64,000 nucleotides of DNA from a virus (lineage: Duplodnaviria > Caudoviricetes): positions 30,379 to 94,378 of IMG/VR virus record IMGVR_UViG_3300027715_000010; one strand, given 5' to 3'. The stretch's first letter is position 1. Every line of letters begins with the position of its first letter. A program made the translations under genes and the position numbers. Under the pieces are notes generated by a model that saw nothing but the letters and a program-made list of their open reading frames with translations, was not told the DNA's origin and did no database searches. This document shows, in pieces, positions 3,449 to 62,748 of the stretch.

Positions 3449-3470
3449 GGGAGGATCCGAAGACCCTCCC
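3449..3470 (-). terminator. UUCG-tetraloop hairpin after gp19
   Basis: GGGAGGGTC-TTCG-GATCCTCCC; near copy of the 2511-2530 hairpin; no U-tract follows. Confidence 0.65.
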
Positions 3471-4027: not shown

Positions 4028-5653
4028 TTAAGCTACTATTTCTTCAAAAGATACACCAGTACGGGTAGCAATGAAGTTTAGTTTAATAAAGTTGATTGAA
4101 CGAGTTGGCTTAATAAACAAATTAGCAACGAATTCATTACGATCTATAACTTCACCAGTATTATTGGTTTCATCGCATATTACGAGATAATCAACAACAC
4201 CTCTACGACCTTGAACATCTCTTAAGAAAGGTTCTACCGTATTTATAAATGAGCGTCTTGTTATTTCGTCATTGAACTCAAACAACACATATTTTGAAGC
4301 TATCGCGATTGATTTTTCTAATGTAATAAATAACATTCTTACATTGATACGGTCAAAAGCACTAGGTTTTGTTTGTAATGTTTTATCTCCATATAGTATA
4401 GCACCTTCATTAGGGAAGATAACACAAGGATTGATTTGTGATTTGTATAATTCATCTCTTGTAGTCTGTGCTTGTGTATATGCAAACTTAACAACGTTCT
4501 TAATACGACCACGATTTAGACCTGCTGGACTAAACCAAGCATCTACATCGTTAGAAGTTTTTGCCATTAAACCAGCAATATCACCATTGAGTGGAACCCA
4601 ACGATAAGTATCTGCATAACGATCGTATTGATATTTCCAAGTACTATCCATAAATGCATAGTTAGAATTACCATATACGGTTCTTGTCGCTTTTACATTG
4701 GTTAAAATTGTACTAATAACACTTACGTTTACGCAGTCTGTCTTAGCAGGTGATACGAAAACAACGCAATCTTTTCTTACTTCTGCGATATTATCAATTA
4801 CCCATTTACCAACTGTAGAAGATGCACCACCAACAAATAAGGTAGTTACGTCAACATCTTCAACTGATTGGAATAATGCCCAACCAGCTTCTAAGTCTGC
4901 ATTAGCTGCAGTAGCACCATTGGCACCACCTGCTAAAGTTACCCCAGAAGAAGCACCAGTTAACAATGAAGCTTTAGCAACATTGATATATGCTGAGTTA
5001 GTTTTTAATCTTTCAACTACATAATTTGTAGAACCATCAAAGCGTTTTGCTGTAGATGTTAAAGAAACATCGTCAAAAGTTTCTAATACGGTTCCAGCAG
5101 TACCAGTGATATTACCCAAAACATCAACTACTACAATATGGAATTGTGAAGCATCTGGAGCACTATCAAATAGGTCTCTATATGCCCAAGTATAATCACC
5201 AGAACTATCTACTACATCAAATCCAGCAGTATCGCACCAAGCAACTTGAATAGAATTACCTAGAGCACCTGGATATTTTGCAATCCAAAGATCTGTTGAT
5301 GTACTAAACGAAGTATTTTCATATTCGTCTTGATTTTTAATTAGTTGACCAGTAGTGCCAGCTGAAGCAGATGCCGTAGCATTCAAAGCACCAGTTCCTA
5401 CTACGCGCACTAATTTAAGATTAGTAGCATAAGCTAAGAAACTAGCTGCTGCAAACCAACCTTCATAATTTGAACTTCCTGGTTTACCGAATTGAGAAAC
5501 GAGGTTTTGCTCGCTATCAATCGTTGTGATAACATCTACAGGTCCCCAAGCAGCTTCCAATACTGTACCACCATTAGAGGTAGCGACAGCTGGAACGTAA
5601 GCTGATTGGTCTGTTTCTGTTACTAAAACACCAGGAGATAATTGTGTAACCAT
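4028..5653 (-). CDS. gp18: Tail sheath protein gp18
   Basis: LSPGVLVTETD, WFSPAGLNRG, FDRINVRMLF, IKPTRSINFIKLNF. Confidence 0.98.
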   Translation of the reverse strand: MVTQLSPGVLVTETDQSAYVPAVATSNGGTVLEAAWGPVDVITTIDSEQNLVSQFGKPGSSNYEGWFAAASFLAYATNLKLVRVVGTGALNATASASAGTTGQLIKNQDEYENTSFSTSTDLWIAKYPGALGNSIQVAWCDTAGFDVVDSSGDYTWAYRDLFDSAPDASQFHIVVVDVLGNITGTAGTVLETFDDVSLTSTAKRFDGSTNYVVERLKTNSAYINVAKASLLTGASSGVTLAGGANGATAANADLEAGWALFQSVEDVDVTTLFVGGASSTVGKWVIDNIAEVRKDCVVFVSPAKTDCVNVSVISTILTNVKATRTVYGNSNYAFMDSTWKYQYDRYADTYRWVPLNGDIAGLMAKTSNDVDAWFSPAGLNRGRIKNVVKFAYTQAQTTRDELYKSQINPCVIFPNEGAILYGDKTLQTKPSAFDRINVRMLFITLEKSIAIASKYVLFEFNDEITRRSFINTVEPFLRDVQGRRGVVDYLVICDETNNTGEVIDRNEFVANLFIKPTRSINFIKLNFIATRTGVSFEEIVA

Positions 5654-5746
5654 TTATTTTATGACTCCTTTTTACTTTTGCAAAAGTACCTCATTTCAGA
5701 GGCACAATTTCTTATGATATAGAAAAACTTTATATATCTTCGTCTA

Positions 5747-5754
5747 TATTTATG
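5747..5754 (-). promoter_or_regulatory. Variant late promoter CATAAATA for gp18
   Basis: One mismatch to TATAAATA, about 95 nt upstream of gp18; the leader contains short hairpins. Confidence 0.5.
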
Positions 5755-5772
5755 CTTACTAAAAAATCGGCG

Positions 5773-6927
5773 TTAATTTATTTCCGAAAGCAAAGGCTGC
5801 ATATCACCTTTTTGTAATATATTAATAGCTGCATTATAATCAGCATCCATTTCCACACCACACGAAGAGCACTTATAGTACTCCCCCTTTCTATTGGTTT
5901 TCATTATAACCCCACAACACGAGCATCTTTGGCTTGTATATGCTGGAGCAACCTTAGTAACCTGGAAACCTTCCATTTCACTAAGGAAACCTAATTTTTC
6001 TAATACTTGTCTATAAGACCAGTATTGCATTTTATTCATAAGATTTGTAGATAACTTAGTATTATTCTTAACTAATTTAAGATCTTCTACATATAATGTA
6101 TGTAATTCTGTATCACTTACTAATTTCTTGCATAATCTATTAATTTCATCTGTTTTATATTTAAGTAGTTTTTCATATCTTCTACTACCTCTTTGCTTCT
6201 TTGCAATTCTATTATAAAGATCTTTTAATTCTTTGCCATAGAATTCACCTTCAGAAGTACTAATTAACTTATTATAACCTATATCAATTCCTATCTTTTT
6301 ACCAGTAGTCTTCTTATCTGGTGTTTTACATTCCCAAAAATAGTTGACATAATACTTACCATTTTTATTTGATAGTCGTACGGTATTCTTTCTTTTACAA
6401 TTATTATACTTTTTCATATAGTTATATAATTGTACAGGAAATTTTATAGATTTAGAATATGGGGTTTTAATAAGAAGAAAATTATTTTGTATATTAAAAA
6501 CTCTAGAATCCAAGCTTATATTGATATTCTTTAGATTTATTTTAATTCTTTTCTTATAGTTTATATTTAATTCTTTAAAGTGTTTTGAGGTAAACTTATA
6601 TTGTCTACCATTTTTTAAGAAGTAACTATATACCTTCTTGTATCTTTTAAAGGTTCTATTCCTAGTATAGTTTATATTAGATCTAACAATTTCAGAAGCT
6701 TGCTTGTATATTATCTGCTTCCAACCAGAATGATGTATAGTATAACCTGGTAGTAAAGGTGAAGATAATAATGATTTTAATGGTATTTTTTCTTCTAATA
6801 TATCTTGGATATACATTCTTAGTTGATTCTCATAGTCAATAAAAATACAATCTAGCATTTCTATTTTACCAGTGTTAGATAACATTAGACTATGTTTAGA
6901 AGTTCTTATATAAATACCGTCAGACAA
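5773..6927 (-). CDS. tnpB: TnpB-family (IS200/IS605-type, Cas12-related) RNA-guided nuclease, no TnpA
   Basis: RuvC I GIDIG, RuvC II VEDL, zinc finger CSCCG...CSSCG, RuvC III DADYNAAINI; PAYTSQRC motif. Confidence 0.93.
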   Translation of the reverse strand: MSDGIYIRTSKHSLMLSNTGKIEMLDCIFIDYENQLRMYIQDILEEKIPLKSLLSSPLLPGYTIHHSGWKQIIYKQASEIVRSNINYTRNRTFKRYKKVYSYFLKNGRQYKFTSKHFKELNINYKKRIKINLKNINISLDSRVFNIQNNFLLIKTPYSKSIKFPVQLYNYMKKYNNCKRKNTVRLSNKNGKYYVNYFWECKTPDKKTTGKKIGIDIGYNKLISTSEGEFYGKELKDLYNRIAKKQRGSRRYEKLLKYKTDEINRLCKKLVSDTELHTLYVEDLKLVKNNTKLSTNLMNKMQYWSYRQVLEKLGFLSEMEGFQVTKVAPAYTSQRCSCCGVIMKTNRKGEYYKCSSCGVEMDADYNAAINILQKGDMQPLLSEIN

Positions 6928-6956
6928 ATCAATAGTTCCTTTATTGGTGTTGTTTA

Positions 6957-6989
6957 GAGGGTATAGATTCGTCCAGAATCTTTATCCTC
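6957..6989. repeat. Imperfect inverted repeat upstream of tnpB (candidate left-end hairpin)
   Basis: GAGGGTATAGATTC-GTCCA-GAATCTTTATCCTC. Confidence 0.45.
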
Positions 6990-6995
6990 GTATAG

Positions 6996-7003
6996 TATTT
7001 ATA
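6996..7003 (-). promoter_or_regulatory. Late promoter TATAAATA upstream of tnpB
   Basis: Exact consensus about 70 nt before the tnpB start. Confidence 0.7.
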
Positions 7004-7039
7004 ATATCTAAAAAATCACAATATCCCAAGTTTATAAAG

Positions 7040-7111
7040 TCGGTGGCCAAGTAAACGGAGGGGAAGACCTAGCCACCGTAGAATATAGCACCGGAGGAGA
7101 AAAGTGCTATA
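7040..7111 (-). ncRNA. Candidate two-hairpin small RNA with CCUCCG loops
   Basis: TATAGCAC/GTGCTATA stem with loop TTTTCTCCTCCG; 12-bp CGGTGGCTAGGT/ACTTGGCCACCG stem with loop CTTCCCCTCCGTTT; starts right after TATAAATA at 7116-7123; the G-U pairs work only on the minus strand. Confidence 0.6.
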
Positions 7112-7115
7112 ATAC

Positions 7116-7123
7116 TATTTATA
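7116..7123 (-). promoter_or_regulatory. Late promoter TATAAATA overlapping gp17 stop
   Basis: Exact consensus; no ORF follows, only the two hairpins. Confidence 0.7.
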
Positions 7124-8696
7124 TTATCAATGAAGTATCATTATACAATCTATTAGTATCTTTATCTTCTACCCCATTATCAATATAAGTTACTGGCATA
7201 AAGTCATCAAAGTTAGTATTGATAGTGTTTCTAAAACTAAGATCCGTCATATCCTTGAAATCATCTTTTGAAGAGAACCAGGCGAATAGAACTAGACCCA
7301 TTACCAAGTCGTCGTGGTGTCCATCATCTGCACAATAGGTATAACCATATCTAATAAAGTTGTTTAGTTCTGTTATGGTATTTTCATCGGTTAGAATTAA
7401 CTTATCTTGCTCTATTAGTTCCTTTAGATTTATACAACCAATCTTCTTTACGTTCTTATTGGTTCTAATACCCATTACACCTTTTTCCGTAAAGATTATA
7501 TTTTCATATTCACACTCGTGTAAAAGTATATGCCCAACCTCTTGTCCAACCGAATTGGTCTCTAATAATACATAAGCATTATTGAACTTTCTGGCAACTT
7601 CATAGATAACATCTGGAAACTGTAAATAACTCATTGTATTATCATAAAAAGTTGCAACCTGACGCATCGGGAACTCTGTAATATCTATCACACTAAACGC
7701 ATTATAGTCCTGTCCTTTACCCTCTGAGCAATCCACGGTTAGCATATAAACATTACTTTTTTTGCTTTCTTCATCTGTCTTAGGGTATTCATATACACGA
7801 AGACCATCTTTCTGATACTCTGGTTTACCATTTACCAAATTACGTAGTTTAGTTGCAGATATCAATGTATCACAAGATCCAAGAAAAGCATTATTGTATT
7901 CTTGCTCAAACTTATCTAAGGACATCGTTTTAAGCATCTTTTCTTTCCAGGCGTCATCTCTACCAGGAACGTCCCAATAGTTAACCTTAATTGGACAGAA
8001 TAAAGAATTACCTTGCTCGGCATCCGTCCACATCTGATAAAAATGATTAAGTCCATTTGGTGTAGATGATATAATAATCTTTGAATTCTTACCAGATGAG
8101 ATAGTAGGGAATACGGAACTTATAAACTCTTGAGCTAAGTCATTGGAAATAAAAGAGAACTCATCAAGGAGCACACTTGAGATTGAACGCCCACGCACTG
8201 CGGAAGCACTTGTAGCACTTGCAGTAATCTTAGAACCATTTTCCAGCTCAATAGAACTCTTATTCCATTCCACGATACCGATCTGCATCCAGAAAGGTAG
8301 ATTTTCATACATCAGTTTAATACGTCCAAGCAGTTCCAATGCGATTGCGTGTTTATTGGCAAGGATTGCGCATTCGTGATAATCATTGAATATAACTGCG
8401 TGTAATAGATAAATCAGACCACTGGTAGACTTACCAGTTTGTCTTGGGGATAGAACTATCGTAAATCTGTTATCGTAGTAACTCTGGACAAGTCTTTCTT
8501 GGTATGGATAAAGATTGATATTCATTAGACCCTTATCCAGGTTAATAATCTTTACATAATTATTAGCAAAGTACTTAATATCAGTTTTACACCTGATAAG
8601 TTCGTCTATTTGCTCTTGAGTAAAGTTAACCTTAACGTTCTCAGCTTTAAGTCTTGGATTGTTAAGATAATACTGTGGACCTTTGAATTCTTTCAT
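7119..8696 (-). CDS. gp17: Terminase large subunit gp17
   Basis: YLNNPRLK, PRQTGKS Walker A, LLDEFSF Walker B, STPNG, HDDLVM nuclease motif. Confidence 0.98.
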   Translation of the reverse strand: MKEFKGPQYYLNNPRLKAENVKVNFTQEQIDELIRCKTDIKYFANNYVKIINLDKGLMNINLYPYQERLVQSYYDNRFTIVLSPRQTGKSTSGLIYLLHAVIFNDYHECAILANKHAIALELLGRIKLMYENLPFWMQIGIVEWNKSSIELENGSKITASATSASAVRGRSISSVLLDEFSFISNDLAQEFISSVFPTISSGKNSKIIISSTPNGLNHFYQMWTDAEQGNSLFCPIKVNYWDVPGRDDAWKEKMLKTMSLDKFEQEYNNAFLGSCDTLISATKLRNLVNGKPEYQKDGLRVYEYPKTDEESKKSNVYMLTVDCSEGKGQDYNAFSVIDITEFPMRQVATFYDNTMSYLQFPDVIYEVARKFNNAYVLLETNSVGQEVGHILLHECEYENIIFTEKGVMGIRTNKNVKKIGCINLKELIEQDKLILTDENTITELNNFIRYGYTYCADDGHHDDLVMGLVLFAWFSSKDDFKDMTDLSFRNTINTNFDDFMPVTYIDNGVEDKDTNRLYNDTSLII

Positions 8697-8712
8697 CCTC
8701 CGTCTCCTACCG

Positions 8713-9183
8713 TTAGACCTTTATATCTTCGGATGTATCTTTCTTTTTATTACCAATCATTTCAAGCACTTCCTTGGTAGATCCAACAAGTAAAGTCTGA
8801 TTGGTTATATTTTGTACAGAACCATTTTCTGGAGTAGGGAACTTGCTGGTAGCATCCTTACGTGTTTTATAAAGTTGTATCAACTTTTCATTGGCAGTTA
8901 CTATCTCTTTCATCATTTTAGTAATCTGCTCATAGATCTTTGGTTCTTGTGTCATAGCTGCAAGTTGCATAAGTTCTTGCATATTTTGATTACCGGTATC
9001 TATCACGTTCTTTAGTTGCTTTCTTGCATAATCAAAGTCATCGTCTATATTACCAGGGGTGGATTCTGGTTCTACATCAATGATTTTCTCTTCCCGTGGT
9101 GTGATATTCATTAGAGGTTTTAGTTCTCTACCGATATCTTCGGCAATATCTAAAACTTGTCCTAACTTTTGGTTTGGTATCAT
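8713..9183 (-). CDS. gp16: Terminase small subunit gp16
   Basis: DDDFDYAR, EPKIYE, LVGSTKE motifs; position before gp17. Confidence 0.9.
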   Translation of the reverse strand: MIPNQKLGQVLDIAEDIGRELKPLMNITPREEKIIDVEPESTPGNIDDDFDYARKQLKNVIDTGNQNMQELMQLAAMTQEPKIYEQITKMMKEIVTANEKLIQLYKTRKDATSKFPTPENGSVQNITNQTLLVGSTKEVLEMIGNKKKDTSEDIKV

Positions 9184-9197
9184 ATAAACTCCGTTTT

Positions 9198-38889: not shown

Positions 38890-38905
38890 TATCTAGTCTC
38901 CGTTG

Positions 38906-50681: not shown

Positions 50682-51238
50682 TTTTTATTCTTTTCACTCA
50701 TAATGATATTATCAATAGCATTAGTAATAGCACAATGCAAATATATTTTAAGTGCTGATACACTTAAACCAATATATCTACGTGCTTCGTCTATATCTAA
50801 TTCATCTAGTTTTATATTATGCTTATGTTCTAAAATGTCAAGTACTTCTTTCTCAAATAGTGTATAATTTATATCTAATGTCATATTAGAAACATCAGTT
50901 GTTAAATTACAGTATATAAAGTCATTAAGACAGTGTTTTTCAATGGATTTATAATGTTCGTCAAGTATATTTACTCTAACAAACTTATTCAACATATTGA
51001 TACCAAAGGACTTTTCAAGGTCAAAGATAATCTTCTGAGGATATTCAAATGCTAACTTAATGATATTACCAGGAATTGCTGGATTGTCTTGAGTTAGAAC
51101 CATACACGGTACATCTCGTTTTAATTCTTTCTCTATAACAAAGTCCGGGCAGAACTTGGATCTAATCTGGATTTTGTGGTTTGGATAACATTGTAGATAC
51201 TTTTTGACTTTATCTACAAAAACTTCATCTATAAACAT
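50678..51238 (-). CDS. Hypothetical protein
   Basis: 186 aa; AGGGG RBS upstream. Confidence 0.7.
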   Translation of the reverse strand: MFIDEVFVDKVKKYLQCYPNHKIQIRSKFCPDFVIEKELKRDVPCMVLTQDNPAIPGNIIKLAFEYPQKIIFDLEKSFGINMLNKFVRVNILDEHYKSIEKHCLNDFIYCNLTTDVSNMTLDINYTLFEKEVLDILEHKHNIKLDELDIDEARRYIGLSVSALKIYLHCAITNAIDNIIMSEKNKK

Positions 51239-51269
51239 ATTTTCCCCTTTCGTAATAAAACATATTTAC

Positions 51270-51298
51270 TATATAAGGCATTAAGTCCGAAAAGTCAA
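51270..51298 (-). promoter_or_regulatory. Possible sigma70-type promoter TTGACT-N17-TATATA
   Basis: Intergenic; same -35 hexamer as at 55649 and 57317. Confidence 0.4.
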
Positions 51299-51307
51299 TT
51301 ACTATTA

Positions 51308-51904
51308 TTAGAAATCTTTCTTCAAATTATCAAAAAATTGTTTTACAATAAGTTTGCATTGGTCATCTCTAACTTCAAGAAAGTTATAATACTTTTCAAC
51401 TTTTCTTTTAAGTTCCAGTTCCCACAATGGATCTTCTGCAAGTTTAGGTAGAAAATGGAATACTTTATCCAGCATAATGACAGTTTCTAAACTAATATCC
51501 CCGGCAATTACGTCTTTGATAAACTCACTACTTAGAATATAGTTCTTAAAACCTGTGATATTACCGACTTTATTTAGAAACTTTAGATTCTCTCTAAAAT
51601 GACCATATAGATCCGACCACTTTTTCTTTAAGTCTATGAATAACTTATGGTCATAGTTTGAAATAAAGAACTTTTCATTTTCAAGAAAGTTAGCAATAAA
51701 GCCAATTTTAATATCTTCTACTGTAGTATGTAGTTTCATTACTCTAAAGAAAAAGTACTTCTGCTTATTGGAATTAATAAAAGCTACTTTATCTTGAATA
51801 CTCTTTACTCTACCTTGATACTTAAAGTAATCATAACTAGAAGAAAAATGCATACGCAAAGGAAAGTATATAGCATATACATCATAAGCATTTACATCAT
51901 CCAT
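51308..51904 (-). CDS. gp59: Helicase loader gp59
   Basis: AYDVYAIYFPLRMHF..YDYFKYQGR, ISLET. Confidence 0.88.
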   Translation of the reverse strand: MDDVNAYDVYAIYFPLRMHFSSSYDYFKYQGRVKSIQDKVAFINSNKQKYFFFRVMKLHTTVEDIKIGFIANFLENEKFFISNYDHKLFIDLKKKWSDLYGHFRENLKFLNKVGNITGFKNYILSSEFIKDVIAGDISLETVIMLDKVFHFLPKLAEDPLWELELKRKVEKYYNFLEVRDDQCKLIVKQFFDNLKKDF

Positions 51905-51911
51905 AATAAAC

Positions 51912-52559
51912 TCACTTTCTATATAATATATCTGGTCCTATTTTTGGAAAGCAATCTAAAGCACTTTCTGGATTGCAGTTATAAACTTTAATGCCTGCTT
52001 TTTCTAATGGTTCTACTGTGGTTCTAAACTTTCTTAACCAGCGTTCTATCTGCACATCCATTGCCGATTTTTCACAAGGTGCTTCATTATGCCACTCGGA
52101 TTCGTTATTCTTACCGGTACTCATATCATATCCAAGTAAGTAAATCTCTTTTGCACCTAATCTAGCAGCGACATTAATTGCTTGGTGACCGGAGTTATTA
52201 CCACAGATATAATCTTCGTGTGCTGGATCCATATCTATTCCTTCGTCACGAGTTAAGTTCATATAGTACTTTACCCCAGCTTTATCCCAATATCCATAAG
52301 CAATATGCATATCTTCCCAGTCTAAATGACCAGTAGAACTAAGTGTAGTATTTTCTAATTTTACAAGATCTCTTGCTGCCATAATGTAAAACGGAAGATC
52401 TGAGAAGTGTATATGGTCACAGTGCATTAGTTTATATGCAAAGTTCAATCCCATTATAAAATACTTATCAGTATCTATTTTACTAACATCAATTTCTTTT
52501 AATGACGGACCACCACCAATTATAATAACTGGTTTGGTTATTTGTGGAAGATTTATCAT
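51912..52559 (-). CDS. MptE/Maf-like (DUF115, sialyltransferase-like fold) protein
   Basis: IIIGGGPSL, GNNSGHQAIN, GAKEIYLLGYDM, VYNCNPESAL. Confidence 0.75.
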   Translation of the reverse strand: MINLPQITKPVIIIGGGPSLKEIDVSKIDTDKYFIMGLNFAYKLMHCDHIHFSDLPFYIMAARDLVKLENTTLSSTGHLDWEDMHIAYGYWDKAGVKYYMNLTRDEGIDMDPAHEDYICGNNSGHQAINVAARLGAKEIYLLGYDMSTGKNNESEWHNEAPCEKSAMDVQIERWLRKFRTTVEPLEKAGIKVYNCNPESALDCFPKIGPDILYRK

Positions 52560-52816
52560 ACATCAAACCTAAATGTTGTTGGTTTCTTTAATAGTCTTAA
52601 ATCAATAGCTTCAGATTCTAGTTTACTCTTAATACCATCTGATAAGTTATCTTTAAGTACTTCAAGATCCATATTGTTTTCTTGAGCATAGATTAGTACA
52701 GCTTCTATATAAGTTGTGTGTTTTTTATTGATAATTTCCATAATATCGTCTGTGGACTTATCTATTACCTGTCTGGTAATAAAATCAGCATCGTTTATAT
52801 CAAGCATTATCTTCAC
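52556..52816 (-). CDS. gp33: Late transcription coactivator gp33
   Basis: TYIEAVLIYAQEN...IKSKLESEAIDLRLLK; near gp59. Confidence 0.85.
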   Translation of the reverse strand: MKIMLDINDADFITRQVIDKSTDDIMEIINKKHTTYIEAVLIYAQENNMDLEVLKDNLSDGIKSKLESEAIDLRLLKKPTTFRFDV

Positions 52817-53753
52817 TCTCCAACTGTGTTGAAACTTGTTCTATTGTTTTAAGAACTGTATCTATACTTACATTTTTATTTATAAATGTAATTCCACAAG
52901 CTTCACTGTGTCCACCACTGGATTGAATAATATCTGGATACGTTGCCTTTAAGTATTCAATACGTTTACCCAAGTTTACTTTTTCTTGTCTGCTTCTAAT
53001 AGAGATGCTATAATACTCACCAGTTGGCCTATTTACAAAATAATAATATCTATAACCTTGCTTATAATACGGCACATAATTCATAATAGGTATTTCTACG
53101 TTATCAGATATTGAAATAAGTCCAGTTTTACCTACATCTGCGTATTCTGTTTGTTTTTCAATACAATGCTTAACTTTGATGCTGTAATCAATGATATAAT
53201 CTTGTTCGTCAACATTAAAACCATTAAATCCATTTGAGAATCTTTTCATAAAGTCTCTTGAGTGATACTTCCAGAATAATGTGTTTAGTCCGTCAGCGTT
53301 TTCCCAATCTTCACTATCATCTTTTTTCCATAGGTCAAAGATATTGGTATACTTAACTAGAGACTCATATTTTATAAGACTTGGAAAAGTATCTATATGG
53401 TCATCATAGAAAATCTTAGCACCACATTTATCTTTATTCCAGCTCATAAAGAACTTTTGTGTCTTTGCGGTTAAGTATTTTTTATAGAAATCTTCTGAAT
53501 TCTGATGATGGTCATATAAGTAAATCTTATCAAACACTTTAAAGATCTTAATAAGCTGGTCTTTACTAAGGCAAAGATCTGTAATTACGATCTCGGTCTC
53601 TTTTGTTTTTAGTGTACAAAATTGTTCTATAACACCATCTAGTTTGACAAGACCCATAGCTTTTGACATATCAAATCTACCGTAAACTTCAGTAGCTAGC
53701 ATTTGACACACGATACCGTCTAGGTCATAGTGTGTTAGTAAATACTTTTGCAT
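52800..53753 (-). CDS. DHH/DHHA1-family phosphoesterase (NrnA-like)
   Basis: THYDLDG, TDL, YDHH, ISIRS, SGGHSEACG. Confidence 0.88.
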   Translation of the reverse strand: MQKYLLTHYDLDGIVCQMLATEVYGRFDMSKAMGLVKLDGVIEQFCTLKTKETEIVITDLCLSKDQLIKIFKVFDKIYLYDHHQNSEDFYKKYLTAKTQKFFMSWNKDKCGAKIFYDDHIDTFPSLIKYESLVKYTNIFDLWKKDDSEDWENADGLNTLFWKYHSRDFMKRFSNGFNGFNVDEQDYIIDYSIKVKHCIEKQTEYADVGKTGLISISDNVEIPIMNYVPYYKQGYRYYYFVNRPTGEYYSISIRSRQEKVNLGKRIEYLKATYPDIIQSSGGHSEACGITFINKNVSIDTVLKTIEQVSTQLESEDNA

Positions 53754-53764
53754 AATATAACTTT

Positions 53765-54403
53765 CTATATAAGTGTTTCTAAGTCCCTATACTCAAAACA
53801 AGTTAAGGCACTGTCTCGGTTGCAGTTATAAACTTGTATTCCTAGATTGTCAATATCTTTTTTCGTATTTATCCAATTTGGTATCATTACCTGTGAATAA
53901 CGAACTGGATTAGTAAAACGTTTATGCTCATCGTGCCAGTTATTATGACCATTGGTTGGTTTCATATCAAAACCAACTAAAGCAATCTTCTTATATCCCA
54001 TTTTTATAAGTACATTAAGTGCTTGAAGACCAGCATTATCTCCACCAACTCTATTTGTTTCCATATAAAGACCATAAGCACCAGCTTTATGTTGATATTC
54101 AATACCACCAGAATTCCTCCACATTTCAACATTATAAGGAACTCCGATATTACCGTTATAAGGTGCAGAGCAAGTCCAGTAATTTTCTAAAACGTGGTCT
54201 TTAAACTTTGGATTTTCATAATGCCAAGTCCACCAGACAAAGTCCGAGAAGTGGCTAAGCACCGTCTTCTTGAATAGTTTATAAGCATTATTGGTTGTGG
54301 CAATATCCTTATCCATTAATAAGTTAAGATTAACTGTTGATAAACTTGGACCACCACCAATTAAATATACTATGTCCTCCATTATTCCCCCGTTATCTAT
54401 CAA
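53765..54403 (-). CDS. Second MptE/Maf-like protein
   Basis: YLIGGGPSL, GGDNAGLQALN, GYKKIALVGFDM, VYNCNRDSAL; start may be the internal MEDIV. Confidence 0.75.
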   Translation of the reverse strand: MIDNGGIMEDIVYLIGGGPSLSTVNLNLLMDKDIATTNNAYKLFKKTVLSHFSDFVWWTWHYENPKFKDHVLENYWTCSAPYNGNIGVPYNVEMWRNSGGIEYQHKAGAYGLYMETNRVGGDNAGLQALNVLIKMGYKKIALVGFDMKPTNGHNNWHDEHKRFTNPVRYSQVMIPNWINTKKDIDNLGIQVYNCNRDSALTCFEYRDLETLI

Positions 54404-54683
54404 TTTGTTCTATAGATTCTATCTTATTATTCTTAAGAATTGCATTATAATACTTTTCAGAAGAAAGATCTTTAAATCTTAGAAAACTAATCATATTGGA
54501 AAGTTCTTCTAAATCATAATTACGTCCAACCCCAGTCATTATATCTTCTAAAGTGCCTTGGTCAAATGCAAGATGAGAAGAAACAAAGGTATCATTTTTT
54601 AAGTAGTCTTTAAGTAAGTCATAATAAAAATTGACAGTTTCTTCATAATGCACTCTAAAGCCTTCTTTTACCACGAATTTCAT
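54393..54683 (-). CDS. Hypothetical protein
   Basis: AGGTG RBS; packed ORF. Confidence 0.65.
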   Translation of the reverse strand: MKFVVKEGFRVHYEETVNFYYDLLKDYLKNDTFVSSHLAFDQGTLEDIMTGVGRNYDLEELSNMISFLRFKDLSSEKYYNAILKNNKIESIEQIDR

Positions 54684-54693
54684 TGTATCACCT

Positions 54694-54966
54694 TTATCGT
54701 GCTATAGCTTGTGCCAAGTGTTTTAGATATGGTGTTATTTTTTGATTTTGAAAATCAAGCTTAACTAGCATATCTTTAATACGGCCTTGCTCTGCACTTG
54801 AAGTTGCTTTCATAGCTTCTATAACAGTTTCAATAGTCATAAAATTGGTTCCTGATTTACCTTCAACTGTGAAAGATTCATCTGTATTAATACCTTTTTC
54901 ATCAATAAATGTATCTAACCATTTATTAAAATTACTATCTTCATTTATTAATTTTACTTTATACAT
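54694..54966 (-). CDS. Hypothetical protein
   Basis: GGAG RBS; WLDTFIDEKGI...LVKLDF motif. Confidence 0.7.
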   Translation of the reverse strand: MYKVKLINEDSNFNKWLDTFIDEKGINTDESFTVEGKSGTNFMTIETVIEAMKATSSAEQGRIKDMLVKLDFQNQKITPYLKHLAQAIAR

Positions 54967-54975
54967 TTTATACTC

Positions 54976-55431
54976 CTAAAATAATTCTAGTTTATTGCTT
55001 GAGAATAGTATACTTTCAGATCTTCTACGATTTGTCAAGCCTTTTAATTCTTTACCAGCAGCTTTATTCCATTTAAGAAACTCTGTAGATGCTTGTGTAA
55101 AGTTATTCTTGTTAATACACTTTAATAATGTACTCTTTGAAAAATTGGTTATTCCGAGGTTATAAACAAAAGAATAGATAGCATCCCACTGGTTTTGTGA
55201 TAAACTAGTTTTTATACAGCTAACTAATTGTTTTTCAATCATATTAACTTCTTCCATTAGATAACCAGATGCTTTCTGCTCTGTAATTACCATACCGGTT
55301 GGAATAGGTTTACCACCGATACGAGTAGTTCCATAACCAATAGTTGGTACTCTTGCTGGACAAAGATAAGTAGAAGGATAGAATCCCTCATAGTGTTTTA
55401 TTAGTTTTAGACCAATATCTGATATTTTCAT
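54976..55431 (-). CDS. Endolysin, GH24 lysozyme
   Basis: LIKHYEG...YLCPARVPTIGYG, QWDAIYSFVYNLG, GLTNRRRSE. Confidence 0.93.
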   Translation of the reverse strand: MKISDIGLKLIKHYEGFYPSTYLCPARVPTIGYGTTRIGGKPIPTGMVITEQKASGYLMEEVNMIEKQLVSCIKTSLSQNQWDAIYSFVYNLGITNFSKSTLLKCINKNNFTQASTEFLKWNKAAGKELKGLTNRRRSESILFSSNKLELF

Positions 55432-55449
55432 CTTTTACCTCTATGCCCG

Positions 55450-55483
55450 TATTTATAATATATATTATCGTTTAGATTGTCAA
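55450..55483 (-). promoter_or_regulatory. Overlapping sigma70-type (TTGACA-N17-TATTAT) and late (TATAAATA, 55450-55457) promoters
   Basis: Both consensus elements read directly upstream of the endolysin. Confidence 0.7.
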
Positions 55484-55604
55484 GCTTAATCTATAATTTA
55501 ATATATATTATCACTGAAACCAAGGGGCTTTCGTCTTAACTATTTGATTTTATTAAAGAAGAATATTTATTTTCGAAAGTACCCCGAAAAAGCACTTCAA
55601 CTTG

Positions 55605-55690
55605 TATAAATACGCTCAAGTATGATTAAAAATAATTGTAAAAAAGACTTGACTTATGATTAAATAGTGATTATATGATATGTATAAATA
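55605..55690 (+). promoter_or_regulatory. Promoter cluster for the large RNA: TATAAATA (55605-55612, 55683-55690) and TTGACT (55649-55654)
   Basis: Two exact late consensus boxes and a -35-like hexamer, all pointing into a non-coding region. Confidence 0.65.
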
Positions 55691-55695
55691 TAAGT

Positions 55696-56335
55696 ATTAA
55701 GTTTTAAGACATACCGGAACCACGAATAAAAAGTCCTTTTCCGGAAAGGCATCCGCAGCAGTAGGAGCAATATGTAGGCACTGCGTACCGTCTAAGGCGG
55801 CGAACGCATAAATAGCTGTCCATAAAGGCCTGGTCGTTGCGGGATACTATAGATTGGTGCGAAAGTACTATTTTTGGGAGTCAGCCCCCAGAAGCATTGG
55901 ACAAACGGTCCAAGTTCTATAGCGCATAGCAAGAATTGAAGAGTTGAAGTCTATGTGAAATCAAAAGTATCTCCATTAGTAGGACTGGTCTTACTGTGGA
56001 TCTAGACTTATGTACATTGGATTCAACATAGGTTTAGTGAAGCGGTAAATGTCAATGGTATTATTCAATAATGTGTCGTAGTTATGTAAAAGTATTTATC
56101 CAAAAGTACTTTACAAAGTCAAAGGGCATTATACCAAGGGGATGGAGATTCCAAAAAAAGATTGTGGCATCTGCAAGGATAGCAACCACATAGGTTATAA
56201 GAATACTCATAATTCTTAAATTTCTTATAACTGACCGAGACTGTTTAGCATATCAAAGGATAAAATATGCTAACTATTTGTATATCAGATAACGGCACAG
56301 AGTTTCACCGTTAAAACAACGAACCTGATAATTTA
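55696..56335 (+). ncRNA. Large structured non-coding RNA, class unassigned (ends approximate)
   Basis: No ORF of 60 aa or more; visibly GC-richer than flanks; more than 12 stems by eye, with GAAA/GCAA tetraloops and G-U pairs on the plus strand; nested multibranch helices. Confidence 0.75.
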
Positions 56336-56339
56336 AGAA

Positions 56340-56814
56340 TAACCGCAACAAAATCAAACAAAAATCATCAATTTTTAAAAAAAAGAATAAAAAATCAAAT
56401 TCTGGGTATTACCAGAATACTATTTGGACTATTAGACGATCAAAGAATTGATCAATGAAGAGAACGAAAAGAGAGAGTGCGAAGCGAAAGAGTGAGAAAC
56501 TGAATCGATCAATAAATGATATATAATATATTCAATAAAATGGCGAAAGCCAAATAGATAATAAATAATATAAACTATATTTGAACAACCATATACAATT
56601 TAAAGATTGGCGAAAGCCAAAGACTTAAATATACAATATAATAAATTAAAATACAATTTAATGAATCAAAATTAATTTGTATTGATAATTTAGATAAAAA
56701 TCAAAAGGCCTGAAATCTATCCTTTTTTTCTCCAAAAAAGTATTCAAAATCGAAAATTCAAATCGACTTATCTTCAATAGAATCTTCAAATGAATATATT
56801 TATCTTCAATGATT
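56340..56814. other. Candidate replication origin / DNA-unwinding region
   Basis: A-rich strand-biased tract; GCGAAGC (56479-56485), TGGCGAAAGCCA (56541-56552), TTGGCGAAAGCCAA (56607-56620), TCTTCAA x3 (56771-56809); near uvsY and the switch in gene orientation. Confidence 0.5.
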
Positions 56815-57285
56815 CTATTCAACAGTTTTTCTTTCAATATAGAACTTATCAGTAAGAGCAAAAGTAGAAGTAAATATGATCGGTTCTTCAGGAGAAAGAG
56901 TCGACGATAGTTTCAATTCAGATAAAGAAGTTGGAAATAGATTAGTAAATGTTATTACAAAGTTAGGATTCTTAGCATTAGTTTCAATAATAAGTTGAGC
57001 ATCAGATCTCATCTGCAATTTATTATTACTTGATACACAGTTTTCCATCCATAGTTTTATACTTTCATAAGTCTTCAAGTCTTCATCTGCAATAAAAGTA
57101 ACTGTCAAGTCCGCTAAGTCAAAGTTATCTCCTGGAGCTTTCATTCCAAATGCTCCAAAGTTCTGTATATCAATTCCAGTTACCTTCAAGGCTGGTAGAG
57201 AGATAGACTGTATCATAAACTTTACTTCAGGAATATGATTAATATGCAGTCTAAATCCATTTGGACTCAAGTAATTCTTATTCAT
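56815..57285 (-). CDS. gp3: Tail tube terminator gp3
   Basis: NYLSPNGF, LP, PGD, LTVTFIADEDL..Y..WM, F.NLFPTSLS. Confidence 0.92.
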   Translation of the reverse strand: MNKNYLSPNGFRLHINHIPEVKFMIQSISLPALKVTGIDIQNFGAFGMKAPGDNFDLADLTVTFIADEDLKTYESIKLWMENCVSSNNKLQMRSDAQLIIETNAKNPNFVITFTNLFPTSLSELKLSSTLSPEEPIIFTSTFALTDKFYIERKTVE

Positions 57286-57316
57286 TAAATAACCTCATCT
57301 TTTTTCAAAATAACTA

Positions 57317-57345
57317 TTGACTTTTAGTCTAATCATATTTATAAG
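57317..57345. promoter_or_regulatory. Plus-strand TTGACT-N17-TATAAG (uvsY) overlapping minus-strand late promoter (57336-57343, gp3)
   Basis: Both elements read directly in the divergent intergenic gap. Confidence 0.6.
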
Positions 57346-57363
57346 TTTATTCAGAGGTAGAAA

Positions 57364-57804
57364 ATGGCTTTAGAATCAATGAAATTAGAAGATATTCAGA
57401 GTTTAGCAGAGAAAGAACTTAGAATATCAGAAGACCTAGGATTGGAGTCCAAGAAAAACACGGATCTCTTTCTTAAGTTTCTAAAAATACACAGTACAGA
57501 GAAACTAGTTTTGCTTAAAATGCAAAATAGTTATAACAAATTGCTTTTACAGAGAAGACAATACTATCTTGGTCAAGGTTCGGTAGAAGATTACAGAAAA
57601 GAACCACAGGATATCAAAGTCTTAAGACAAGATGCAGATCTTTATCTTAATGCAGATAGTCTGGTATCCAAGGAACAGTTGGCTCTTGGTTTACAGAAAG
57701 AAAAAGTAGAATGTACAGAAGCTATTCTTAAGCATATACAGAACAGAGGTTTTCAGATCTCCAAGATGATTGAATGGCAAAAGTTTACTAATGGAGTTAA
57801 CTAA
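57364..57804 (+). CDS. uvsY: Recombination mediator UvsY
   Basis: YYLG, YLNAD, IQNRGFQISKMIEWQKF. Confidence 0.92.
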   Translation: MALESMKLEDIQSLAEKELRISEDLGLESKKNTDLFLKFLKIHSTEKLVLLKMQNSYNKLLLQRRQYYLGQGSVEDYRKEPQDIKVLRQDADLYLNADSLVSKEQLALGLQKEKVECTEAILKHIQNRGFQISKMIEWQKFTNGVN

Positions 57805-57843
57805 TGCTTCGCATAACCGATTTAATTTGCTCCCCGGCGGGTT

Positions 57844-59289
57844 TTGATGATAACAGTAACTAAAATAGATGAAGTCTGGGCAAAGTTAGCCATAGAAGAA
57901 CGTTGTGTAATAATGGAAGTATCAGATTACTTTTCATTTTTTACACCAACAGCTAGATGGTCACCTTTATTCAAGAACAAAATCTGGGACGGTAAGATCC
58001 GTCTTTTCAATGCTCAGACAGGTAAACTATACACCGGTCTAATACATCATTTATATGCTTTTGCCAAAGAACACGATTATCCAATTACTTTCAAAGGCTT
58101 TTCTAAACCAGATCCAATCAGTACCGATGACTTCATAAAGAATCTACAACTACAGAAAACTCCATACGATTTTCAATTAGATGCCCTTAATCACGTTGCT
58201 AATAAACATCGTGCAGTTTTGGTATCCCCAACCGGCACCGGTAAGTCATTGATTATATATCTTATAGTTAAGTTATTCAAACTAAAGACACTTATTATAG
58301 TTCCTTCCGTGCAATTAGTATCACAAATGACCAAGGACTTTATAGACTACGATCCTTCCATTGGTAAAGATATACATCAAATCTACTCCGGACAAGAGAA
58401 AGAAACAGATAAATCTATTACAATTAGTACTTATCAATCCTTACTTAGATTACCCAAAGAATACTTTCAAGACTTCCAGGCTGTAGTTTGTGATGAAGCA
58501 CACGGAGCAGATGCCAAGTCCATCAAGAAAATACTTGAGAATCTTGAAGGTGCATATATTCGTGTTGGAACTACTGGTACTTTAAAAGATATAGAAAAAG
58601 GTAATGTACACCAGTTGGTATTAGAAGGACTAATGGGACCGATTAAAGTAGTTACCAAGACCAGAGATGCTATTGACAATAACATACTTTCTAAATTAAA
58701 TATCAATATCTTATTGTTAGAATATCCTGCTAAGGATCGTAAGTTAGTCCAAGATATGGATTATCAAGAAGAGATGACCTATATTTTACAACATCAACAA
58801 AGAAACAAGTTTATTAAAAATCTAGCTTTACAATTACAAGGAAATACTTTATTACTGTTTACTAGAATAGAACACGGTAAGATAATTTATGACTTATTAA
58901 AAGAACATACAGATCGCAAAGTGTTTTATATAGACGGGGGAATAGACGTGGATCCAAGAGAAGAGATTCGTGCTTATATGGAAAAGAATAAAGATGTTAT
59001 ATTGGTTGCTTCTTATGGTACTTTCTCGCAAGGTATCAATATCAAGAATCTACACAATGTTATCTTTGCCTCTTTTTATAAAAGCCGTGTTAAAGTATTA
59101 CAAAGCATCGGACGTGTTTTAAGAAAGTATCAAGACAAGGTAGCAACTTTATATGATATCGCAGACGACTTAGGAACACCGAAACGAAAGAACTTTTCTT
59201 TGAAACACCTTATAGAACGTATTAAAATGTATGCAGAAGAGAAACATAATTATAACATAAAGAAGATTAGAGTGCCAGATAATGAATAA
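57844..59289 (+). CDS. uvsW: DNA helicase UvsW
   Basis: WDGKIRLF, SPTGTGKS, DEAH, GTTGT, QSIGRVLR. Confidence 0.96.
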   Translation: MMITVTKIDEVWAKLAIEERCVIMEVSDYFSFFTPTARWSPLFKNKIWDGKIRLFNAQTGKLYTGLIHHLYAFAKEHDYPITFKGFSKPDPISTDDFIKNLQLQKTPYDFQLDALNHVANKHRAVLVSPTGTGKSLIIYLIVKLFKLKTLIIVPSVQLVSQMTKDFIDYDPSIGKDIHQIYSGQEKETDKSITISTYQSLLRLPKEYFQDFQAVVCDEAHGADAKSIKKILENLEGAYIRVGTTGTLKDIEKGNVHQLVLEGLMGPIKVVTKTRDAIDNNILSKLNINILLLEYPAKDRKLVQDMDYQEEMTYILQHQQRNKFIKNLALQLQGNTLLLFTRIEHGKIIYDLLKEHTDRKVFYIDGGIDVDPREEIRAYMEKNKDVILVASYGTFSQGINIKNLHNVIFASFYKSRVKVLQSIGRVLRKYQDKVATLYDIADDLGTPKRKNFSLKHLIERIKMYAEEKHNYNIKKIRVPDNE

Positions 59290-59806
59290 ACCACCAAAAG
59301 ATACAAGTAGAAATTACCTTGATAAAGAAAAAGTCTACCAACAGTTTGTTATTTACCATAAAAAGATGCTTGAAGCTAAAGAAAAAAATGAAGAACTACC
59401 AAGAGTACCAGAGTCTATTGGTAAGGCTATTCTTCTAATTTGCACCAATCTAGGTAAACTATGGAAGTTTCGTGGATATACTTATAACGAAGATATGATT
59501 GGTTATGCCATAGAACAATGTATCAGATATGTAAATAACTTTGACCCGAACAAATCTAAAGAACCATTTAGTTACTTTACTCAGATTGCCATCTATGCCT
59601 TTATTCGGTATATTCAAAAAGAAAAGAAGCAAAGATATATCCAAGTTGAGTGTATGAAGGATAACGAATTCTTATCCGGTCTAGTAACCATATCAGACCA
59701 CGATGACTATAAAAAGATAAACCTTGATTGTGTTGAGTTTATCAAGAATTATATTGAGACTAATGATAAAAAAGAGGTATCCAATGAAGATAGCAGTTCT
59801 AACTGA
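59282..59806 (+). CDS. gp55: Late sigma factor gp55
   Basis: FRGYTYNEDMI, NFDPNKSKEPFSYFTQI..AFIRYIQKEKKQ. Confidence 0.95.
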   Translation: MNKPPKDTSRNYLDKEKVYQQFVIYHKKMLEAKEKNEELPRVPESIGKAILLICTNLGKLWKFRGYTYNEDMIGYAIEQCIRYVNNFDPNKSKEPFSYFTQIAIYAFIRYIQKEKKQRYIQVECMKDNEFLSGLVTISDHDDYKKINLDCVEFIKNYIETNDKKEVSNEDSSSN

Positions 59807-60791
59807 TACTCACTTTGGTGTTAAAAATGACGACCAGGGTATGCTAGATTATTTTGATAAGTTCTATACGGTCTTCTTTGATTACTTAGAAAAGAATAAT
59901 ATCAAGCAAGTAATACACTGCGGGGACTTTTTTGATAAACGTAAGAATATAAACTTTCTAACATTAAATAAAACAAAGACCATATTCCTTGATAAGTTAG
60001 AAAAGCACGGAATTACTATGGATATCATTGAGGGTAACCACGATATCTATTTTAAGAATACCAATGTGGTATCAAGCCTAAAAGAAATCTTGGATCTATA
60101 TAAGAACATTAATGTAATAGATAAACCTATCACAAAAGAGTTTGATGACCTACCAGTAGACTTTATTCCTTGGATTATAAACGAACAGAATGCTATTGAT
60201 TTTATTCAACAATCTAAATCCAAGATTGTATTCGGGCACTTTGAGTTAAAAGGATATGAATACAGTCCAGGAGTAAAATCCGAAATTGGTATGTCAGATA
60301 CTATTCTTACCAAATACGGACAGATCTATTCTGGACATTATCATTTACACGGAAAGAATTATATTGGATCCCCTTATGAGATTACTTGGTCTGATTATCA
60401 AACCAAAAAAGGATTCTATGTCTTTGATACTAAAACAGAAAATGCAGAATTTGTAGAGAATAAGCATAGATTATTCTGTAAGATCTTTTACGAAGAAGGT
60501 ATGGAACCAGTATCAGTAAAGAATAAGATTGTTAAAGTTTATGCCAAGTTTGAACGTGACCAATTACAGTTTGATAAATGGTTAGTTGATGTAAATAATG
60601 AAAATCCGTTGGAACTTACGGTTATAGAATCCGATGCAGATAATTCTTTAGAAAAAGTTGAAATAAATGTTGACAATGTAGATACTTTACAATATATCAA
60701 AGAAGTAATAGATGCAAGTGAAACGGTTTTGGATAAAATCGTTATAAAGAAATTAGTAACTAACATATACCAAGAAGCGGAGACAATCTAA
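59784..60791 (+). CDS. gp47: Recombination nuclease gp47 (Mre11-like)
   Basis: Start revised to MKIAVLTDTHFG; GDFFD, GNHD, GHFE, SGHYH. Confidence 0.95.
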   Translation: MKIAVLTDTHFGVKNDDQGMLDYFDKFYTVFFDYLEKNNIKQVIHCGDFFDKRKNINFLTLNKTKTIFLDKLEKHGITMDIIEGNHDIYFKNTNVVSSLKEILDLYKNINVIDKPITKEFDDLPVDFIPWIINEQNAIDFIQQSKSKIVFGHFELKGYEYSPGVKSEIGMSDTILTKYGQIYSGHYHLHGKNYIGSPYEITWSDYQTKKGFYVFDTKTENAEFVENKHRLFCKIFYEEGMEPVSVKNKIVKVYAKFERDQLQFDKWLVDVNNENPLELTVIESDADNSLEKVEINVDNVDTLQYIKEVIDASETVLDKIVIKKLVTNIYQEAETI

Positions 60792-60792
60792 A

Positions 60793-61050
60793 ATGAAAAC
60801 TATTTTTGTACAAAAGTTAATGATTGAAGGTTATAAAGAAAAAGAACATCAACCAAATCTAAACGTAACCATCAATAGTGAAACTGGTATAACTATTTCA
60901 AACCAGAATATCAACTGGGCATATTCTTGCTTTATTCCATTACTTGATATTCGTGATGACGATGCAACCAAACTAATTATTGATACAGTTAGAAAATTGG
61001 ACGCTGCTATTGCTCCAGCAAAAGAAGAACCAAAAGATGATAGTATTTAA
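60793..61050 (+). CDS. Hypothetical protein between gp47 and gp46
   Basis: Packed 85-aa ORF. Confidence 0.6.
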   Translation: MKTIFVQKLMIEGYKEKEHQPNLNVTINSETGITISNQNINWAYSCFIPLLDIRDDDATKLIIDTVRKLDAAIAPAKEEPKDDSI

Positions 61051-62734: not shown

Positions 62735-62748
62735 GAAAGAGATATAAT

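Follow-up and report, generated by a model that had tools for sequence, protein, structure and literature searches.

Downstream of gp17, the large terminase gene of an uncultured phage that we describe as virulent and T4-like, we found two adjacent hairpins on the minus strand whose large loops share a C-rich, anti-Shine-Dalgarno (anti-SD) motif. The hairpins form a genuine, strand-specific structure, not a chance fold, and they stand out among the hairpins of this phage. Their fold, their strand, the accessibility of their loops, their single copy, their resemblance to the small RNA family ar14 and their place outside the neighbouring tnpB cassette are shown by the sequence analysis. As an explanation we tentatively favour, with somewhat less than even confidence, an anti-SD riboregulator of the cuckoo/ar14 design that would be transcribed late or would be cut out of the gp17 3' UTR. 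It would be a minus-strand RNA element of ~70-100 nt, in which two very stable hairpins expose pyrimidine-rich UUCYCCUCCG loops. The loops would pair with ribosome-binding sites of the GGAG(G) type and block 30S binding, like the CCUCCUCCC loops of ar14/NfeR1 and CcsR. The candidate targets are the start regions of the phage with the strongest SD sequences, including that of gp17, and host mRNAs.

Genomic setting of the twin hairpins

The window analysed here, a stretch of 64,000 nt (64 kb), makes up the right-hand part of an IMG/VR contig of 94 kb that was recovered from metagenomes of subsurface and freshwater origin. The phage is a T4-like myovirus with 33% G+C. Its genome closes at ~126.8 kb and is circular or circularly permuted, as judged from a 127-kb ENA contig (k141_454272) that overlaps both ends of the 94-kb contig. 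The 94-kb contig represents ~74% of the genome, for which the prior estimate was 52%. The extra 32 kb carries gp45/44/62-like replication genes, a RegA-type translational repressor, NrdD, a GroEL-like chaperonin and an RNA ligase. Host inference based on LpxC gave a 'Pseudomonadota-like', Gram-negative host and nothing finer. No tRNA or tmRNA was found in a scan of the stretch, and the ribosome-binding sites of the phage are canonical GGAG/AGGA.

The minus-strand gene order is gp15, gp16, gp17, tnpB, gp18, gp19 and gp20 (portal), and Pfam confirmed the names of all seven genes. Since 91.6% of the contig is coding, leaving 8.4% as non-coding or gene-edge DNA, the gap of 191 nt between gp17 and tnpB is conspicuous. 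The first-pass annotation described this gap as an octamer overlapping the gp17 stop codon that is followed by two hairpins rather than by an ORF, and all of its sequence statements were correct. The region has no ORF of 40 aa or more on either strand. Read-through or frameshifting at the gp17 stop codon was also considered and was rejected, as the in-frame extension ends after 3 codons. The features of the region are as follows.

7119-8696, minus strand: gp17, large terminase subunit (Pfam Terminase_6N and Terminase_6C)
7121-7119, minus strand: gp17 stop codon TAA, read from the sequence
7084-7111, minus strand: hairpin 1, 8 Watson-Crick pairs and a closing U-G (8-9 bp); -8.7 kcal/mol; stem pair probability 0.84-0.94
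7103-7092, minus strand: hairpin 1 loop, UUUUCUCCUCCG, 12 nt (taken as 10-12 nt in the family-size check)
7079-7083, minus strand: linker UUCUA, 5 nt, between hairpins 1 and 2
7041-7078, minus strand: hairpin 2, 12-bp stem with 7 G-C and 2 G-U pairs; -18.3 kcal/mol; stem pair probability 0.98-0.99
7066-7053, minus strand: hairpin 2 loop, CUUCCCCUCCGUUU, 14 nt; 0.90 unpaired

Fold and strand of the hairpins

For the minus-strand sequence, the folding energy was -29.5 kcal/mol (z = -3.86), a value reached by 1 of 200 shuffled sequences. The plus-strand fold reached only z = -1.16 against its shuffles, because the two G-U pairs of stem 2 turn into C-A mismatches on that strand. Owing to this contrast, the earlier argument that the two G-U pairs fix the minus strand holds. 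Three transcript contexts were modelled, namely a 75-nt RNA, a 5' leader reaching tnpB and the 3' end of the gp17 mRNA, and in every one the stems paired with a probability of 0.84-0.99 and the loops were 0.84-0.90 unpaired. Few perfect stems in the 94-kb contig are as long as that of hairpin 2.

The two loops had been noted to share CCUCCG. This is true, and the shared stretch is longer, since the motif UUCYCCUCCG is common to both loops with 9/10 positions identical. The other strong intergenic hairpins of the phage occur singly and are capped by UUCG or GAAA tetraloops, whereas those studied here are paired and have large loops with a shared motif. Because of this difference, the twin hairpins are regarded as a separate class. 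Among the tetraloop hairpins, two near-identical UUCG hairpins (GGAGGAUC...GAUCCUCC) at 2511-2530 and 3449-3470 on the minus strand lie on either side of an ORF inserted between gp19 and gp20.

Resemblance to the ar14/cuckoo small RNAs

The best Rfam match of the region, and the one family to align with it convincingly, was ar14 (RF02344), at 7119-7009 on the minus strand, with E = 5e-4 and 28.9 bits, which is half of the ar14 gathering cut-off of 58.8 bits. This match came from a narrow scan of 6980-7160, which uses laxer speed filters than wider scans; ar14 was not recovered in the wider scans with their stricter filters, and nowhere in the window did a family reach its gathering cut-off. 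At the size of the whole genome, the E-value becomes ~0.4 when all 4227 families are counted and ~1e-4 when ar14 is taken alone. In the alignment, hairpins 1 and 2 fell on hairpins 1 and 2 of the model, with both loop motifs at the CCUCCUCCC positions. The third (terminator) hairpin of the model was deleted, and the model U-tail was placed on a U-run at 7016-7009. Because the ar14 score restates features that had already been noticed in the sequence, it formalises them and is not independent evidence. The CcsR1 model (RF02791) gave no match.

By the published rules, a cuckoo RNA has 2-4 hairpins side by side, each 24-50 nt long with a loop of 9-27 nt and a stem no shorter than 6 bp, and a linker no longer than 10 nt (PMC4615179). 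Here, hairpin 1 is 28 nt long (loop 10-12 nt, stem 9 bp), hairpin 2 is 38 nt long (loop 14 nt, stem 12 bp) and the linker has 5 nt, so that hairpin, loop and linker sizes all lie inside the published limits. Every loop of the family is described as carrying the motif CCUCCUCCC (PMC4615179). The loops of the element, whose motifs are CUCCUCCG and CCCCUCCG, hold UCUCCUCCG (7/9 positions of CCUCCUCCC) and UCCCCUCCG (6/9), respectively, and the CCUCC core is present in both. The element shares with the ar14/cuckoo RNAs of Alphaproteobacteria (NfeR1 of Sinorhizobium meliloti, CcsR1-4 of Rhodobacter sphaeroides) the modular adjacent hairpins, the variable stems and a C-rich anti-SD motif in each loop. 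It differs from them in the exact sequence of its loop motifs, in its score, in the missing terminator hairpin and in the missing CcsR1 match. Moreover, the cuckoo family ranges over Rhizobiales or Rhodobacterales, with its primary locus beside a DUF1127 gene (PMC4615179), whereas the element found here is AT-rich and belongs to a virulent T4-like phage of 33% G+C, with no DUF1127/CcaF-like gene in the 94-kb contig.

In ar14/NfeR1, 8-nt loop-start region pairings suffice for repression, and the redundant loops occlude ribosome-binding sites (PMC10746234). RNAIII and RsaE of Staphylococcus, sX13 of Xanthomonas and RepG of Helicobacter have been named as cuckoo analogues (PMC4615179). The element is like these RNAs in its unpaired C-rich hairpin-loop motifs suited to pairing with G-rich ribosome-binding sites; it has no sequence or structural homology to them and no Rfam match, and the comparison is one of principle. 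These results suggest that, on paper, the element resembles a cuckoo/ar14 RNA in design and predicted function, while it is not a demonstrable member of the family. Convergence is more likely than common descent.

Complementarity of the loops to start regions

The first-pass annotation had proposed an anti-SD small RNA that tunes terminase levels or silences host mRNAs with strong SDs, and had noted that loop 2 is complementary to the gp16 ribosome-binding site, the gp17 initiation region and the gp26 ribosome-binding site. All three complementarities were present. The sites are listed below.

8690-8703, minus strand: gp17 initiation region, ACGGAGGAUGAAAG; strongest raw pairing with loop 1, at -15.7 kcal/mol over 12 pairs and one bulged U
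8703-8697, minus strand: ACGGAGG of gp17, 7 nt complementary to loop 2, read from the sequence
9189-9196, minus strand: gp16 ribosome-binding site, AAACGGAG; 8-nt complement of loop 2, rank 5 with accessibility
38898-38904, minus strand: AACGGAG, ribosome-binding site of the gp26-like baseplate gene (Pfam PF12322); 7-nt complement of loop 2, rank 6

In a search by raw duplex energy, the best non-self partner of loop 1 over both strands of the contig was the gp17 start region, CGGAGGA[U]GAAAG. By raw duplex energy it came first of 128 start regions for this loop, with a margin of 3.2 kcal/mol. However, the complementarity proved to be generic. A generic 16S-like anti-SD and the cuckoo consensus likewise placed the gp17 start region at rank 2-3, and it was first for 11% of random 12-mers bearing CCUCC. 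Compared with a CCUCC core in random flanks, loop 1 gave p = 0.03 and loop 2 gave p = 0.11; when the flanks were shuffled instead, the values were 0.12 and 0.38, respectively. With target accessibility taken into account, gp17 was at rank 2 for loop 1 and outside the top 8 for loop 2. The gp16 and gp26 sites came no higher than ranks 5 and 6 for loop 2.

The gp17 start region is among the strongest SD-like sites of the phage. At the gp16-gp17 junction (8690-8715, minus strand), UAGGAGA at normal spacing is accompanied by a second GGAGG that abuts the AUG and cannot serve as an SD itself. Owing to these two SD-like motifs, the gp17 start is among the strongest anti-SD partners of the genome. 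Since the anti-SD and random CCUCC controls also favour gp17, regulation specific to the terminase is not supported, and the terminase story should not be carried forward without experiments. What is supported of the earlier proposal is the strand-specific RNA structure in place of an ORF, the two accessible C-rich loops of anti-SD type, the ar14 alignment and the late-promoter character of TATAAATA.

Two other target preferences were examined and rejected. The loops did not prefer the start regions of early genes, as the predicted affinity for early- and late-type start regions was no different (p = 0.19-0.25). Pairing with the ribosome-binding site of tnpB or gp18 was dropped as well, because both lay outside the top start regions.

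Copies and relatives of the element

The ~126.8-kb genome contains no second copy of the element. Searches against cultured phages by megablast, distant blastn and tblastn gave no DNA match, and gp17 was at most 47% identical to its counterparts there. In 5.8 billion proteins, the best identity of gp17 was 50%, apart from the identical protein of re-assemblies of the same phage. A scan of viral contigs for the two loop motifs returned 38 matches, where ~37 would arise by chance, and none had the structure of the element. The same kind of motif scan over genome and metagenome contigs returned 235 matches, with weak stems of 5-7 bp in high-G+C coding-like DNA only.

The one strong look-alike, at 4124-4191 of IMGVR_UViG_3300037484_001137, a viral contig of high G+C, has twin hairpins whose stems measure 8 and 11-12 bp and whose loops bear the same motifs. 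It was rejected as a relative, as its loops are the Shine-Dalgarno sequences of genes on the opposite strand. An HTH_3 gene and an ATG 7 nt after GGAGGAG are among these opposite-strand starts, and the display of SDs in hairpin loops may be a form of translational control in that virus.

Independent assemblies of our phage were identical over the element region, and the ENA and IMG/VR sequences were identical across 5600-8800. Over 51037-64000, the two sequences had 5 differences in 12,964 nt (99.96% identity), which points to slight population microdiversity or assembly noise.

Late-promoter octamers and the predicted ends of the RNA

The octamer over the gp17 stop codon is one of three features that bear on the predicted ends of the RNA.

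7116-7123, minus strand: TATAAATA (P1), T4-type late promoter consensus; exact octamer over the gp17 stop codon
6996-7003, minus strand: second TATAAATA (P2), within the upstream tnpB-flanking repeat and 120 nt downstream from P1
7008-7017, minus strand: U-run GAUUUUUUAG, 24 nt after hairpin 2, forming the first 10 bases of the tnpB-flanking direct repeat

Of the 33 copies of TATAAATA in the contig, 18 lie within the 8.4% of non-coding or gene-edge DNA, which is an enrichment of ~6-fold. Because of this enrichment we read the octamer as a functional late promoter: it is clearly predicted to act as one in this phage, and most of its intergenic copies should be real late promoters. P1 itself, at 7123-7116, could be incidental, as a by-product of the last gp17 codons ATA ATA TAA in a genome of 33% G+C. 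In T4 late promoters, the +1 position lies ~6 nt downstream of the octamer. If P1 is active, the predicted 5' end of its RNA would lie at ~7110, the first paired base of hairpin 1. Two metatranscriptome runs of the same study contained next to none of the stretch.

Elsewhere in the window, two plus-strand copies of TATAAATA, at 55605 and 55683, have no gene within 1.6 kb. They lie in a region of ~1.4 kb (55432-56814) that has no ORF longer than 46 aa in an otherwise 92%-coding genome, and this region may be a non-coding RNA or an origin region.

For the favoured riboregulator, we infer transcription, RNA ends, base-pairing function and targets, and late production could take either or both of two routes. 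In the first, transcription would begin from the TATAAATA over the gp17 stop codon, giving an RNA that starts at the foot of hairpin 1. In the second, the element would be the 3' UTR of the gp15-16-17 late mRNA, possibly processed like CcsR; some members of that family arise when RNase E cleaves a 3' or 5' UTR (PMC8034643).

A transcript-boundary structure as an alternative

It is possible, though doubtful, that the hairpins form a passive structure at a transcript boundary, either as a 3' exonuclease barrier or weak terminator of the gp15-17 mRNA, in front of the gp18 promoter, or as a 5' stabiliser of an mRNA from P1, with loops that play no role in pairing. The usual layout of this phage is a stop codon, a hairpin, TATAAATA and the next gene. 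It is seen at 2530-2511, where the hairpin is followed by TATAAATA at 2507-2500, and also at 3470-3449. The twin hairpins likewise precede a TATAAATA, namely P2 at 7003-6996. They thus resemble the transcript-boundary hairpins of T4-like phages in that they follow one late gene and precede the next late promoter, and in their stable, G+C-rich stems. Little terminase and much sheath protein are needed, which makes insulation of the genes plausible. A 5'-terminal stem-loop without a leader shields mRNAs from RNase E, and a start at ~7110 from P1 would give exactly such a stem-loop, with no single-stranded leader. Furthermore, the duplex and accessibility searches yielded no specific target for the loops.

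Several observations argue against this explanation. An intrinsic terminator is a G+C-rich stem directly followed by a U-tract, and neither stem has one; hairpin 2 is followed by ACUUUAUAAAC. The U-run at 7008-7017 has no hairpin directly before it and is not a canonical terminator, and a consensus scan of 5500-7400 found no terminator-like site. The other boundary hairpins of the phage are single and tetraloop-capped, whereas here there are two, with unusually large loops of 12-14 nt that have a common 10-nt motif, and a purely structural role needs no such motif. The top Rfam match of the region, in addition, is a family of anti-SD small RNAs. A gp17 terminator had been named in the first-pass annotation as a fall-back should the small RNA fail. 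A terminator or other 3' structure stays a live rival to the riboregulator, although the U-tract is absent.

Protein-binding RNA as an alternative

A second alternative, which we consider unlikely, is that the element is bound by a protein or by the polymerase. It would then be an operator, a decoy or a processing signal, or it would act in cis like the put RNAs of HK022, which have two hairpins and modify the transcribing polymerase. The same 10-nt loop motif in two adjacent hairpins is a typical layout of a repeated protein site, and the element lies directly downstream of the promoter-like TATAAATA. The small protein CcaF1 binds CcsR RNAs, whose loops are similar (PMC8034643). However, the 94-kb contig has no DUF1127/CcaF-like gene, no candidate binding protein was found, and the element has no sequence similarity to put or to any other Rfam cis-element.

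Relation of the hairpins to the tnpB cassette

The gene downstream of the hairpins, tnpB, is inserted between gp17 and gp18 and is flanked by an imperfect direct repeat, as listed below.

5773-6927, minus strand: tnpB, 384 aa (Pfam PF07282 and PF01385)
6980-7017, minus strand: upstream copy of the ~38-bp imperfect direct repeat, found by alignment
5728-5768, minus strand: downstream repeat copy, beginning 4 nt after the tnpB stop codon
5754-5747, minus strand: octamer CATAAATA in the downstream repeat, ahead of gp18

The repeat opens with GATTTTTTAG and includes a late-promoter-like octamer. Over the cassette as a whole (5728-7017, minus strand), the octamer is TATAAATA in the upstream copy and CATAAATA in the downstream copy. 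The cassette presumably resembles the promoter-bearing mobile cassettes of T4-type phages.

The other fall-back of the first-pass annotation was that the hairpins belong to the end of the tnpB element, as its end structure or as a barrier to read-through. We regard this as very unlikely, although the hairpins do sit upstream of tnpB, in the gap of 191 nt. Subterminal hairpins are a feature of IS200/IS605 elements, and the left end of IS200 carries a terminator and a hairpin that sequesters the ribosome-binding site. In addition, none of 80 distant T4-like gp17 loci, which come from relatives without this tnpB and were scanned downstream of gp17 and on both strands, showed convincing twin CCUCC-loop hairpins. 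Hairpins upstream of a tnpB gene are what the element has in common with IS200/IS605 left ends. Hairpins that form the end of an IS200/IS605/IS607 element would lie inside its boundaries and recur beside related tnpB genes, and those found here do neither. They are 5' of the upstream repeat copy, so that the repeats (7017-6980 and 5768-5728) leave them at least 24 nt outside the cassette. At six loci of related tnpB genes, which encode the closest TnpB relatives (29-49% identical), no CCUCC hairpins were present upstream. One close member of the TnpB family directly abuts a serine resolvase gene and is therefore taken as an IS607-type element; IS607-type elements have no hairpin ends. The ribosome-binding site of tnpB was also unmatched by the loops. 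Because the hairpins are outside the repeat and absent at related loci, and because the family is IS607-type, they are probably not part of the tnpB element and would be native to the gp17-gp18 intergenic region of the phage.

Finally, it is highly improbable that the plus strand is the functional one, with its loops CGGAGGAGAAAA and AAACGGAGGGGAAG acting as SD/GGA motifs in the ribosome-binding site of an antisense mini-ORF or in a CsrA-type decoy: GGA or GGAGG in hairpin loops is a hallmark of CsrA-binding RNAs, and the unrelated twin hairpin of IMGVR_UViG_3300037484_001137 does bear SDs of opposite-strand genes, but the plus-strand fold is no better than that of shuffled sequences, with C-A mismatches in place of two G-U pairs, neither motif leads into a plus-strand ORF (the frame that starts at the GTG after loop 1 has 2 codons), and the neighbouring genes are all on the minus strand.

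Discussion

Small RNAs that act by base-pairing have been described many times from bacteria and prophages. To our knowledge, few are known from strictly lytic phages, and we know of no multi-loop anti-SD regulator described for the T4 group; a literature search likewise found none. In its most specific form, the riboregulator that we favour would be a cuckoo-type late small RNA of a virulent T4-like phage, with twin redundant anti-SD loops that silence host, early-phage or terminase mRNAs with strong SDs. We put this forward even more tentatively than the general design.

If the hairpins are only a transcript-end structure, they would be an ordinary feature with unusual loops. If the riboregulator is real, phages would have independently evolved or acquired the redundant anti-SD loop design in the style of Alphaproteobacteria. 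It would constitute a compact and portable translational silencer, and it would add an RNA layer to the RegA-type, protein-based translational control encoded in the same genome. The twin hairpins merit experiment.
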